DNA of 64,000 nt from Eledone cirrhosa (taxonomy: Eukaryota), in NCBI GenBank assembly GCA_964016885.1, contig OZ024742.1, positions 362,266,001 to 362,330,000 of the forward strand, in the 5' to 3' direction. This document shows positions 29,519 to 56,345 of this stretch, piece after piece (the first letter of the stretch is position 1; each line of letters begins with the position of its first letter). The notes beneath the pieces were generated by a model. That model worked only from the letters and a program-made list of their open reading frames with translations. It did no database searches and had not been told where the DNA came from. A program made the translations under genes and the position numbers.

Positions 29519-29880
29519 ATAAAGAAAAAGAGATGAAATCGAAAATGCAACTGGAGTCTTATTTAATTTAGAATTATATATATTTATTTGGTTCCTTTAC
29601 CGGTTTCGCAGTTCTTCTGCTTTTCAAAAGGTGAGTTGAGATGGAGGGTCTGTGGTTTTTCTCAGATGTGAGAAAAACCACAGACCCTCCATCTCAACTA
29701 AACTTTTGAAAAGCAGAAGAACTGCGAAACCGGTAAAGGAACCAAATAAATATATATAATTTTAAAAAAAATAAGACTCCAGTTGCATTTTCGATTTTAT
29801 CTCTTTTTCTTTATACTTTCACTCGTGTAGGACACCTCGGTTATTTTTCATTTTGTAAAAAAACCTCACTTTCTAATATA
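29519..29880 (+). mobile_element. Fold-back element with U3-A8 hammerhead
   Basis: Arms 29519-29665/29670-29814; 'ctt TTGAAAA gcag aagaa ctgc GAAA ccgg TA aag' (29703-29738); tail to 29878; (TA)n on both sides. Confidence 0.8.
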
Positions 29881-29962
29881 CATATATATATATATATATA
29901 TATATATATATATATATATATATATATATATATATATATATATATATATATATATATATATA

Positions 29963-31722
29963 TAAAATAAAGTTAAATAAAAGTCAAATGATTAAAATAT
30001 AGCTTCGTTTATTACTGCTATATATATTTCAGTGACAGTCATCTTTGGCTGTAACCTCTTCAGGCAGTTTGAATTAGTATGGTATAGACAAGTACATATG
30101 TTGTTGAGGTGTATAATATTGTCATTACTCTGATATGCCTAGTTCCTTGTTGGGTTGTTATTTCATTGAGGAACTGGAATCATATGAATTCAAACAAACG
30201 AATTTCAGTGTTAAAGGTTCTCTTCTCCTCTCATTGGTCAGTTATTAGAACATTCCTCATTCTAAGTGTTGTTATTGTTGGAGTTAGCTTAAAAAATTGA
30301 TAAAATGGTAGAAGGGACAAGGTGTTAAAGGAGCAAAATAACAAAAAAAGTGTCAAACTTCCTATTGGTCAGTTCTGAGAGCATTCCTCAGTCAGAAGTC
30401 TATATAATTCTTTCTGTGGTGAGGTTCCCTGTAGTGTTTTTGTTTGCCATTGTTCAGTACATTTGACCTCTACCATTATTTTGGTAGTGTTGTTGGTGTT
30501 GTGGTCAGCTTATATCTTGCTGCTGCTAACAATTTAGAAGTATCCAGTGTGTGTTTTTTCTTCATCCCTCCTGCCACCATCTCTCATAGTAGTGTTGGTG
30601 GTGGTGGTGGTGGTGGTGGTGGTGGTGGGGGGGGGGGTGTTCTTCCATGTATATGAAGAAATATAAGGCAATAAATGAAGAAAACAGAAAATAAATAAAT
30701 AATATAATAAAATAATTAATATAATTTGTATAATTTGAAAATGAATAAATAAATAGAGAATAAAGAATAAAGAATAAATGAAAAATTGGTGAAAAAGTAA
30801 TGAAAATGAATATGGAGAAGTGAAAAATAATGTAGGATAAAGTGTGTGTGTGCTATAACCAATCTCAAGGTCAGAAATATGTTGGATAGATTGGTATGAG
30901 GGCAAGATGTTAAGATAAGATAATCAAACTAAATGTGTTTGTGTTATAATCAATCTCAACTTAAAAATAAATATAAGGTGATACAGTGAAGAGGGCAGAA
31001 AACAAATAACAAATTAATAAAGAAAAATCAAGATTTAAAATTGGAACTTGAAAATCAGAAATCTAGTAAATTAAAAAGTGTTTGTGTTATATAGATGTTG
31101 GCCAAATTATAATGGCTGTGTCCGATTCTATCTCTAGGCTATCATGGTGTCTTCTCAGCCTGGGTTGTTCCCTATGGCTTGAGGGGAGTTCACAACCTAG
31201 GGTGTTGTTACTGCCCATATAGCTTGAGGGAGGTCTGGCCGAGAGGTGTTTTCATGTTCTGATGAAGTCCCTATAGCTTGAGGGGAGTTCACATCTTCTT
31301 GCGTTGCTACTGTCCATATATCTTGAGAAAAAAATGTTCTAATAACTGACCAATGAGAGGAGAAGAGGACCTTTGACACTGAAATTCGTTTGTTTGAATT
31401 CATATGATTCCCGTTCCTCAGTGAAATAACAACCCAACAAGGAACTGGGCATATCAGAGTAATGACAATATTATACACCTCAACAACATATGTACTTGTC
31501 TATACCATACTAATTCAAACTGCCTGAAGAGGTCACAGCCAAAGATGGCTGTCACTGAAATATATATAGCAGTAATAAACGAAGCTAAATTTTAATCATT
31601 TGACTTTTATTTAACTTTATTTTACACTACTCCGGAGTAACCAAACCAACCTGCGCACTTCGTCGAGTGCTCCAGCCTGCATACCGAGGTGTTGGTATAC
31701 TACCAACATAAACTAAAAATCT
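29963..31722. mobile_element. PLE-type insertion with about 290-bp inverted pLTR arms and canonical hammerhead
   Basis: Arms 29963-30253/31334-31624; 'actgc CTGAAGA g gtcacagcca aaga tggctgtcac t GAAA tatata TA gcagt' (31519-31573); tail with GAGTGCT at 31665. Confidence 0.85.
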
Positions 31723-31860
31723 CTCTCTCTATATATATATATATACATATATATATGTATATTTATATATTTATATATTTATATATATATATATATATAT
31801 ATATATATATATATATATATATATATATATATATATATATATATATATATATATATATAT

Positions 31861-54109: not shown

Positions 54110-54412
54110 TTCTGAGAGGAGTAAAGATGACAACGATAAATCCGGAATTCCGATAGCTGTCTGGTCAAGGAGTCATACCTGTCACGAAGTTTCAGGCTCA
54201 CTCTCTGTGCATCGTATCTTCCCAATGTGTGTATTATCTCTCTCTCTCTACCCCCCCCCCTCTCTCTCTCTCTCTCTCTCTCTCTCTCTCTCTATATATA
54301 TATATATATATATATATATATATATATATATATATATATATATATATTTATATATAAATATATATATATAAATATATATATATAAATATATATATATTTA
54401 TATATATATATA

Positions 54413-56190
54413 TAGGAACCAGTAAGACCCCGACAGCTGAGCTCAAGCCGTTTCGACGGCTAATTCTGGACTAAATGAAAATTTATCCTGGTATTTAAAT
54501 AGCCGATCTTCTCAAGGGGTAATTCCATATATGGTCAAAGTGATTGTCAAAAATCAGTAGTAATTCTGTGGTTGCAAATTAGTAGGGGAGATGGTGGCTA
54601 AACCTGCCAGTAGGAGAAAGAGGGGAGGGGGTGGAGTAGACCCAATCAAGCGTTGGTAGTGCCAGCTACAGCTGGGCATGAGGTCAAAGAAGATACTGGG
54701 GAGGGGGAGGGGGAGGAAGTCGGAACGGTAGGTAGAACAATGGGGGGTAGAAATATATAGGAAAGAAAAAATACTGAGAGTGAAGAAAAGCAAATAAGTG
54801 TAAAGAAAAAAGTAAAGTAAATTCTACGACCTAGGTCTCTAGCTATTGTTAGGCTAGAATAAATAAAGAAATAAATAAATAAATAAATAAAGAAAGAAAG
54901 AAAGAAGTAAAGAAAGAAATAAAGAAATAACGAAATAAGTAAAAGAACTAGGTGGGACGATATAGGCAAGGACCCTTTAAGAGGTATAAGTACGTAAATG
55001 ATACGGTGACGGGTCAACAAAAGGGGCCAAAATACTAAAGAGACTACCACTAGCCTTAGTACCCCCACCCCTCCTCTAGTCTATGATAGATTTGGCGGAC
55101 TCCGCCTTTTATAGCAGTTGGTTTAGACCCCGGATACTTGTCCCCTTTTTCCGACCGCTCCCACTATTCTCTGTGCCCTCTATATTTCTTAGTGGCACTT
55201 ATGCCTTATTTTTTCGTTTCAGTATTTCTTTCTTCGCTTTTCTTTTGGGCGGGGTGGATTCTGAATTTATCTTTCCGTATTCTACCTTTACCTCGTACGA
55301 ACTTTCATGTAGCTTGTTTTAGATCTTTTAGAGTTAGCATTAGTATATATTTTTCTCGGGACTCAGAATTATTATCTCGTACTAGTTCACTTTGCTGCAT
55401 GGGTGGTTGCTGGCATTGTGCCCGGGATGGAAACCTTTATTGTTTATTTCGTGGTAGTCTCTTTAGTATTTTGGCCCCTTTTGTTGACCCGTCACCGTAT
55501 CATTTACGTACTTATACCTCTTAAAGGGTCCTTGCCTAATCCGTCCCATCTAGTTCTTTTACTTATTTCGTTATTTCTTTATTTCTTTCTTTACTTCTTT
55601 CTTTCTTTCTTTCTTTCTTTCTTTCTTTCTTTCTTTCTTTCTTTCTTTCTTTCTTTATTTATTTATTGTAGCCTAACAATAGCTAGAGACCTAGGTCGTA
55701 GAATTTACTTTACTTTTTTCTTTACACTTATTTGCTTTTCTTCACTCTCAGTATTTTTTCTTTCCTATATATTTCTACCCCCCATTGTTCTACCTACCGT
55801 TCCGACTTCCTCCCCCTCCCCCTCCCCAGTATCTTCTTTGACCTCATGCCCAGCTGTAGCTGGCACTACCAACGCTTGATTGGGTCTACTCCACCCCCTC
55901 CCCTCTTTCTCCTACTGGCAGGTTTAGCCACCATCTCCCCTACTAATTTGCAACCACAGAATTACTACTGATTTTTGACAATCACTTTGACCATATATGG
56001 AATTACCCCTTGAGAAGATCGGCTATTTAAATACCAGGATAAATTTTCATTTAGTCCAGAATTAGCCGTCGAAACGGCTTGAGCTCAGCTGTCGGGGTCT
56101 TACTGGTTCCTATTACCCACTCTACTACCTCAAGTATTGAGTACTTTGGTGCGTTATGGTCCACCTGGTTCCTTACCACATTTCCTTCGT
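54413..56190. mobile_element. Fold-back element with about 640-bp arms and U3-A8 hammerhead
   Basis: Arms 54413-55050/55452-56113; 'acccc TTGAGAA gatcggcta..tagccgtc GAAA cggc ttgagctca gctg TC ggggt' (56005-56098); tail with GAGTACT at 56139; (TA)n flanks. Confidence 0.85.
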
Positions 56191-56211
56191 TATATATATA
56201 TATATATATAT

Positions 56212-56345
56212 AGGAAAAAGACAGAATCCGACGGCTGAGTTCCGGCTGTTTCAACCTGTTTCAACAGATAGATCCGAACTAAGCCAGCAGTATTAGGACG
56301 GCGGGAATCTAACTGAACTTATCAAGAGATATTGTCCATATATGG
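56212..56345 (-). mobile_element. Related pLTR with TTGATAA hammerhead core
   Basis: Minus strand 'atctc TTGATAA..GAAA cagccggaactcagccg TC ggat'; 10-bp internal duplication. Confidence 0.55.

Follow-up and report, generated by a model that had tools for sequence, protein, structure and literature searches.

Which kind of element carries a hammerhead ribozyme whose conserved core has been rewritten at two positions, and can such a ribozyme still work? This question is raised by a 64,000-nucleotide stretch of the Eledone cirrhosa genome (assembly GCA_964016885.1, contig OZ024742.1, positions 362,266,001 to 362,330,000; here called the window), which is A/T rich and contains many (TA)n runs. 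At three sites in it, the heptamers TTGAAAA (29706-29712, plus strand, with a mirror copy on the minus strand within 29594-29631), TTGAGAA (56010-56016, plus strand, and 54509-54515, minus strand), and TTGATAA (56319-56325, minus strand) take the place of CTGANGA. We refer to the corresponding repeats as families A, C, and B, the window copy of the last belonging to subfamily B1. An initial annotation of the sequence had pointed out these heptamers, and we found them where it had placed them, in a type-I layout with CUGANGA replaced. Its account was incomplete in that it missed the identity of the elements as Penelope-like elements (PLEs), in which U3-A8 has already been published (PMC4209133). 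It is in our view probable that the three sites are type-I hammerhead motifs with a U3-A8 pair, located close to the 3' termini of head-to-head PLE copies that were inserted into (TA)n, and likely still self-cleaving.

Homology of the three sites to hammerhead ribozymes

The invariant type-I core (U4 G5 A6, A9, G12 A13 A14, A15.1-U16.1, H17) was standard in both arms of families A and C and in the B1 consensus. Literal C3 and G8 were absent from A, C, and B1, and the 3-8 pair was present as the covariant U3-A8. Three helices with an open stem I were obtained for family C by minimum free energy (MFE) folding and for family A with an intermolecular stem III; the window copy of B1, which is decayed, did not form them.

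A scan allowing any bases at positions 3 and 8, as proposed in the initial annotation, was run with our own motif descriptor. It matched 6 sites in the window, compared to 0.06 per window expected from 100 simulated windows with matching dinucleotide composition. These six sites are repeat copies from five or six families and not independent events. Because a stem II of 5 bp was required in the chance run, family A is not counted there, and its site was found by a stricter separate scan. At the Rfam gathering score, no hammerhead family (RF00163, RF00008, and relatives) was found in the window, nor was there a hammerhead at E <= 10 among the 150 listed of 193 rows for the whole window. The Hammerhead_1 model (RF00163) shares the type-I topology, but the three variant families remained unmatched by it at E <= 10. 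The prediction that scans restricted to CUGANGA would overlook these sites thus held, the Rfam hammerhead models missing them at both thresholds.

The lack of any Rfam hammerhead match would also be expected if the sites were chance look-alikes in fold-back DNA (miniature inverted-repeat transposable elements [MITEs], inverted repeats of DNA transposons, or microRNA-like hairpins) having no link to ribozymes. An A/T-rich motif in an A/T-rich genome is compatible with this explanation as well, and the palindrome harboring family A (298 bp) scores on several microRNA models, all far below threshold. We nevertheless consider chance resemblance hardly credible, as the descriptor matches lie ~100-fold above the simulated expectation, the TTGAGAA motif is found in the inter-ORF repeat of a tandem retroelement with reverse transcriptase (RT)-type and GIY-YIG endonuclease-type motifs (ORF, open reading frame), and sister subfamilies and other families carry a canonical CUGANGA at the same position. 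Furthermore, the center of the inverted pairs varies and their tail is one-sided, unlike terminal inverted repeats with target-site duplications. Together with the tandem relative bearing RT-type motifs, these two properties led us to reject a MITE or another fold-back DNA transposon. We are highly confident that the three sites are homologues of PLE hammerheads.

U3-A8 is the state of whole families

In none of the three families was the consensus a canonical CUGANGA, which had been named as one of the findings that would speak against the initial proposal. Genome-wide counts, here and below, were made on the 3.0-Gb assembly. In family A, TTGAAAA was present in 46/46 scanned arms, and the 29-nt core occurred 11,732 times, compared to 0 for a control pattern. 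The family C core occurred 2,227 times (controls, 0 and 1), and the first 100 genome matches comprised 98 TTGAGAA, 1 TTGAAAA, and 1 CTGAGAA. The family B core had 337 matches, the first 100 of which included 82 with U3-A8 (79 of them TTGATAA), 7 with U3.G8, 4 with C3-G8, and 7 others. U3-A8 is therefore the family state in A, B, and C and not a private mutation of the window copies.

The initial annotation had also described the families sharing U3-A8 as unrelated. This holds for family A, which alone stands apart, and not for B and C, which share stem I, stem III, and their flanks; stem sequences differ between B and C, with pairing kept.

Family C belongs to an apparently autonomous Penelope-like element

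All three variant families, as well as the canonical ones, end in (TA)n. Both insertions in the window (29518-29815 and 54412-56196) consist of an inverted 5'-truncated copy with a one-sided tail and a (TA)n target. The PLE signature given in PMC8557442 and PMC11167929 combines tandem pseudo-LTRs (LTR, long terminal repeat), inverted copies truncated at the 5' end, tails on a single side, (TA)n as the target, and a hammerhead close to the 3' terminus, and these features are found together here.

The link is most direct for family C. Its two 105-nt motifs in the window are identical and read ACCCC-UUGAGAA-stem II-GAAA-stem III-GUC-GGGGU. The MFE fold of the motif is the exact hammerhead three-way junction, with the core strands and C17 unpaired, a stem I of 5 bp, a stem II of 2 + 6 bp with one bulge, and a stem III of 6 bp with GUC next to it. 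The stems of the first two sites had been annotated as intact, to which two qualifications apply in family A: stem I of the plus arm has 3 bp, and stem III forms no hairpin.

Elsewhere in the genome, family C cores also occur in runs of five with a period of 3,542-3,543 bp. One such array (L144) contains three tandem units with open frames of 786 and 784 aa, the third being cut by the locus end. Its hammerhead motif lies ~75 nt ahead of the open frame, in the inter-ORF repeat, and is identical to window positions 55988-56191. The 786-aa frame contains, as recognized by eye, YRDDG and, after a Cys-rich linker, a GIY-YIG-type motif (VIYQC...YIG...R..H). According to blastn against the L144 unit, the window copy of this element, PLE-C, is the last 1.1 kb of the element (3' untranslated region [UTR], no ORF) joined head-to-head to a 639-nt inverted copy (Table 1). 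Its plus arm extends ~80 nt further 3' than its minus arm, which constitutes the one-sided tail.

The 786-aa ORF is 38% identical (E 1e-180) to the 821-aa ORF of a second PLE of the same genome, the C terminus of which gave a weak Pfam GIY-YIG match (E 0.0027, below the cut-off). Among 653 database homologues, one had a weak RVT_1 match (E 9e-6, below the cut-off). Precomputed family assignments of the homologues include PF26215 and PF28514. A PDB sequence search with the ORFs gave no match. The second PLE is found in tandem at ~3.9 kb and has at least 150 matches at 97-100% identity, many of them with the full 821-aa frame, as in a very young family. It carries the canonical motif CUGAUGA ... 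GAAAUGCGCAUA, present in 12,798 copies, with CTGATGA in 99 of the first 100. In addition, RF00163 detected at least 18 canonical hammerheads above the cut-off (34.4-37.8 bits) in the same genome, in elements also ending in (TA)n.

Two further observations concern the second PLE. Its ORF (L118, G000:C4:169498800-169506200) has a long Asn/Ser/Ile-rich low-complexity insert between the RT and the endonuclease, which the 786-aa ORF does not have, and its endonuclease part is extremely abundant, with 57,279 first-look candidates.

For PLE-C, two alternative 3' ends, at 56113 and ~56190, are marked by loose contig ends of a DNA-like public run that continue into TA repeats. In the same run, contig depth increases ~20-fold starting at 56040-56057, and loose ends are numerous at 56041-56050; most genomic PLE-C copies therefore end inside the stem II loop, without the UUGAGAA half. 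At position 56090, ~71% of the contig depth has C, compared to T in the window, and hence the stem III pair 15.3-16.3 is G-C in most copies and G.U in the window copy. The sole public run recorded as RNA contributed one 100-nt contig at 55714-55813, well upstream of the family C motif.

Family A may act as a dimer

The family A motif lies in a 298-bp near-perfect palindrome detected by inverted-repeat search, the arms of which are 4 nt apart and 96% complementary. Each arm reads, in the outward direction, stem I, UUGAAAA, GCAG-AAGAA-CUGC (stem II), GAAA, ACCGGU, A17, and AAGG. Stem I has 4 bp (CCUU/AAGG) in the minus arm and in the family consensus, and its reduction in the plus arm results from changes private to this copy. 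Stem III consists of the 6-nt palindrome ACCGGU, which pairs solely between two copies. Indeed, folding two strands together yielded a double hammerhead at -22.5 kcal/mol, compared to -15.0 for two monomers. Folded as a single RNA, the 298-nt palindrome is a hairpin of -231.8 kcal/mol in which the motif is buried.

The 298-bp unit has at least 80 genome matches at 93-100% identity; the unit search returned 1,206 candidates, 40 of which were scored. Joining CTGANGA to the family A stem II gave 0 genome matches, i.e., no canonical relative of family A. Minus/plus motif pairs are spaced from ~50 nt to 3.5 kb, many of them near 109-114 nt, and this variable spacing identifies them as head-to-head copies that were 5' truncated at differing points. 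In 21/21 copies, a stretch of ~61 nt separates the arm from (TA)n on exactly one side (13 right, 8 left). The longest arms elsewhere in the genome reach ~900 nt and are non-coding, and tblastn with the 821-aa ORF, used to look for a family A ORF, returned a nested piece in L100 as its only match.

A microRNA precursor at 29619-29714 (both strands) was considered and rejected, the scores (mir-4679, 48.8 bits versus 88; MIR8562, 55.4 versus 211) being those of generic hairpin matches. Just left of the palindrome, 28528-29218 (minus strand) shares 65.7% identity with the coding region of the 821-aa PLE unit and is probably an older PLE fragment that was inserted separately.

Family B contains three core states

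The B1 copy of the window is decayed: it has a 10-nt duplication, its stem I is down to 2 bp, and its stem III is disrupted. It keeps both core boxes, and the B1 family consensus is intact. Among 47 aligned family B units, 20 were U-A, 10 were U.G, 9 were C-G, and 8 were of other types. The U.G and C-G copies form subfamilies of their own with linked differences and are not decayed B1: the consensuses of B3 (CUGAGGA), B2 (UUGAGGA), and B1 (UUGAUAA) differ at positions 3, 7, and 8. The series C3-G8, U3.G8, and U3-A8 fits a stepwise compensatory switch through a wobble pair. Moreover, B2 has two CpG sites (CCGG and GCGC) at the places of TpG in B1, which points to a B2-to-B1 direction.

Family B has a long insert in stem II (e.g., 56255-56275, minus strand, and L047), in which GGCTTAGTTCGGATC resembles a tRNA-type B box, and ~35 nt upstream of it lies a weaker stretch resembling an A box. 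An internal pol III promoter has been proposed for some SINE-like (SINE, short interspersed nuclear element) hammerhead elements, and one is possible in family B.

Association of positions 3 and 8 among the motif families

Scanning 527,830 bases with the descriptor gave 127 matches. With the Rfam family and the B2 and B3 subfamilies added, they represent ~14 motif families, in which the 3-8 state was C-G in 8, U-A in 4, U.G in 2, and C-A in 0, A8 occurring only alongside U3. The association was significant by Fisher's test (P = 0.015, or 0.036 with related lineages collapsed and single matches dropped), although the families are not all independent. The loci had been retrieved with the Rfam family and families A, B, and C as queries, and an unbiased sample is therefore provided by the incidental families alone.

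We tentatively propose, as a possibility that we would not rank as probable, that the genome preserves a compensatory core switch in steps, with C3-G8, U3.G8, and U3-A8 subfamilies each amplified and ~14,000 U3-A8 copies, as numerous as the main canonical family (exact-core counts, 11,732 + 2,227 + ~300 variant versus 12,798 canonical). If this is true, PLE propagation in vivo would select for a paired 3-8, i.e., a working ribozyme, though insertion in vitro needs none. For the detection of such elements, the counts mean that over half of the abundant hammerhead-type PLE motifs counted in the genome escape both the Rfam models and scans bound to CUGANGA. The apparently young autonomous U3-A8 PLE, with its U.G and C-G sister subfamilies, would provide a natural mutant series for the role of the hammerhead in vivo.

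Do the U3-A8 motifs still cut RNA?

In the initial annotation, U3-A8 is described as a functional but uncommon variant; constructs with it would keep activity. Our literature search for C3U/G8A hammerheads found no paper. The statement of the initial annotation that positions 3 and 8 form a tertiary pair in the active fold is borne out by PMC3884650, where this pairing is given with sources, and by mutants of both positions in PMC11167929: in PAc, the Poseidon PLE of Anolis, cutting is lost with C3G and with G8C and is partly regained when both are combined.

We predict, with somewhat better than even confidence, that the U3-A8 motifs still cut RNA. In RNA transcribed from a tandem array or master copy, the motif would fold and cut after C17 in family C or A17 in family A (Table 1), the U-A pair keeping the tertiary 3-8 pairing needed by the active fold. 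Monomers would be active in families C and B, and only dimers, formed via the ACCGGU palindrome, in family A. Cleavage would trim read-through or multimeric RNA to unit length, and the genomic head-to-head copies would be dead by-products of insertion.

Several findings weigh against this prediction and, more broadly, against our reading of the sites as self-cleaving PLE hammerheads. Even on the two site stretches alone, each shorter than 500 nt, Rfam detected no hammerhead at E <= 10. The MFE of the family C motif is not below that of shuffled sequences (z = -0.12), and in a sample of family C copies picked by a 19-nt exact match, with subfamilies mixed, the motif had 2.6-3.7% mismatches, compared to 0.3-2.0% in the flanks, and thus no excess of motif conservation. 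Stems I and II of family A have only 4 bp each, and no ORF was found for this family, the ~870 nt upstream of the motif being non-coding. No Pfam match was obtained with the whole 786-aa and 821-aa ORFs or with two pieces of the 786-aa ORF, which counts against the assignment for the 786-aa ORF. Divergence from the respective consensus (0.088, 0.077, and 0.099 for B3, B2, and B1; n = 6, 6, and 16) gave no age order for the family B series. Regarding published elements, minimal PLE hammerheads are described as cleaving poorly in vitro (PMC4209133), Naiad PLEs as thriving without hammerheads (PMC8557442), and hammerhead-dead mutants of PAc as inserting like the wild type in vitro (Frangieh et al. 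2024, PMC11167929), with no RNA-seq reads ending at the cut site.

Some of these findings are what one would expect if the motifs were true descendants of PLE hammerheads that are catalytically dead or irrelevant passengers. In that case, PLE copying would not need the ribozyme, drift would have fixed two common transitions, C to T at position 3 and G to A at position 8, in master copies, and the two changes would compensate for each other by luck. The unaffected insertion of the PAc mutants, the absence of motif conservation beyond the flanks in family C, and the very short stems of family A favor this explanation, as do the amplification of the U3.G8 subfamily B2 and the fact that both changes are transitions. 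For two of these reasons, namely, a family C motif no better kept than its flanks and the normal insertion of hammerhead-dead PAc, the argument in the initial annotation that the double change reflects selection on catalysis is not supported as it was written. Yet, in three high-copy families the other checked core positions stay standard, A8 is seen only with U3 across ~14 families, and C3-A8 is in no family consensus. The stems of B and C differ in sequence and still pair, and flatworm PLEs show this swap as well (PMC4209133). We therefore regard the passenger explanation as a serious but rather unlikely alternative to motifs that still cleave.

Comparison with published systems

The U3-A8 variant and its PLE home have been in print since 2014, and in this respect the present finding is confirmatory. 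Cervera and De la Peña (PMC4209133) describe U3-A8 covariation in the PLE hammerheads of Schistosoma, with ~1,300 matches, as well as a double-hammerhead dimer form of PLE minimal hammerheads. As in the Cercyon PLEs of Schistosoma mansoni treated there, the Eledone motifs are of type I and located in terminal repeats, have U3-A8 for C3-G8 with G10.1-C11.1 kept, and exist in thousands of copies, mostly single or in close opposite-strand pairs; the palindromic stem III of Cercyon is as in family A. They differ from Cercyon in their host, in their unrelated sequences, and in that families C and B have a stem III hairpin of 5-6 bp and a long stem II, so that they should act as monomers. A further difference is that one U3-A8 motif lies here on an apparently intact autonomous element and that a U3.G8 intermediate subfamily is visible. 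What is new is the presence of a U3-A8 core in an autonomous PLE that appears to be intact, together with the visible U.G intermediate subfamily and copy numbers matching those of the canonical family.

Inverted copies, tails, a (TA)n bias, and 3' hammerheads of PLEs were reported by Craig et al. (2021, PMC8557442). PLE-C fits their description of the Hydra clade, a likeness of features rather than of phylogeny: a short single ORF (RT followed by GIY-YIG in the Hydra clade, RT- and GIY-YIG-type motifs in PLE-C), nearly all insertions in (TA)n, inverted copies truncated at the 5' end, tails on a single side, and a hammerhead close to the 3' terminus. However, all Hydra hammerheads are given as canonical, whereas several families are U3-A8 here, and the unit of 3.5 kb compares to "generally < 3 kb" in the Hydra clade. 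PAc resembles PLE-C in having its hammerhead next to the ORF start, and the PAc tail is attributed to reverse transcription that starts internally (PMC11167929). Unlike the Eledone families, PAc has a canonical C3-G8 core, and the swap tested in it was G3-C8 and not U3-A8 (PMC11167929).

Finally, families A and B are similar to metazoan non-LTR retrozymes (Cervera and De la Peña 2020, PMC7229834; Li, Clavereau, and Pollet 2026, bioRxiv 10.64898/2026.07.22.740005) in being short non-coding type-I units derived from PLE terminal repeats. Retrozymes are defined by head-to-tail tandems of such units, each with a hammerhead, from which circular RNA can arise. The copies of A, B, and C in the window are either single or arranged head-to-head and do not correspond to this definition.

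Table 1. Features of the three variant families in the window (coordinates refer to the 64,000-nucleotide stretch)
Feature	Position	Strand	Evidence
Family A left arm, 5'-truncated copy (147 nt), 3' end abutting (TA)n	29518..29664	-	Inverted-repeat search, genome matches
Family A U3-A8 motif, left arm; predicted cut between 29598 and 29597	29594..29631	-	Sequence, scan, dimer fold
Family A right arm, joined head-to-head to left arm	29669..29815	+	Inverted-repeat search, genome matches
Family A U3-A8 motif, right arm, stem I of 3 bp; predicted cut between 29735 and 29736	29703..29738	+	
Family A one-sided tail, ~61 nt, from arm to (TA)n	29816..29876	+	21/21 copies
PLE-C inverted 5'-truncated arm (3' UTR only), short 3' end at (TA)n	54412..55050	-	blastn versus L144 tandem unit, 91.6% identity
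PLE-C U3-A8 hammerhead (UUGAGAA...GAAA...GUC); predicted cut between 54432 and 54431	54427..54520	-	
PLE-C 3'-terminal 1.1 kb, long 3' end; 56114-56193 is extra tail	55051..56193	+	blastn
PLE-C U3-A8 hammerhead; predicted cut after C17, between 56093 and 56094	56005..56098	+	MFE fold; identical motif in tandem copies
(TA)n microsatellite common to the 3' ends of PLE-C (+) and B1 (-)	56194..56213	.	Sequence
Family B1 unit, non-autonomous relative of PLE-C, 3' end at (TA)n	56214..56370	-	
B1 decayed U3-A8 hammerhead (UUGAUAA at 56319-56325); predicted C17 at 56230	56225..56328	-	

Other hammerhead-like motifs

Further motifs with a canonical C3-G8 are present in the window at 30063 (minus strand), 31524 (plus), 26377 (minus), 57421 (plus), and 7844 (minus), none of them at the Rfam gathering score. 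The first two form an outward-facing CUGAAGA pair whose stem III is the TA palindrome GAAAUAUAUAUA, and the motif at 26377 is similar. The 821-aa PLE motif, CUGAUGA ... GAAAUGCGCAUA, recurs at 57421, and stem III is full in the CUGAUGA motif at 7844. Outside the window, two single incidental cores were noted on the minus strands of other loci: a UUGAUAA core with the 10-nt palindromic stem III ACUACGUAGU in L042 (~2576) and a UUGAUGA (U3.G8) core with GAAAUAUAUA in L099 (~954).

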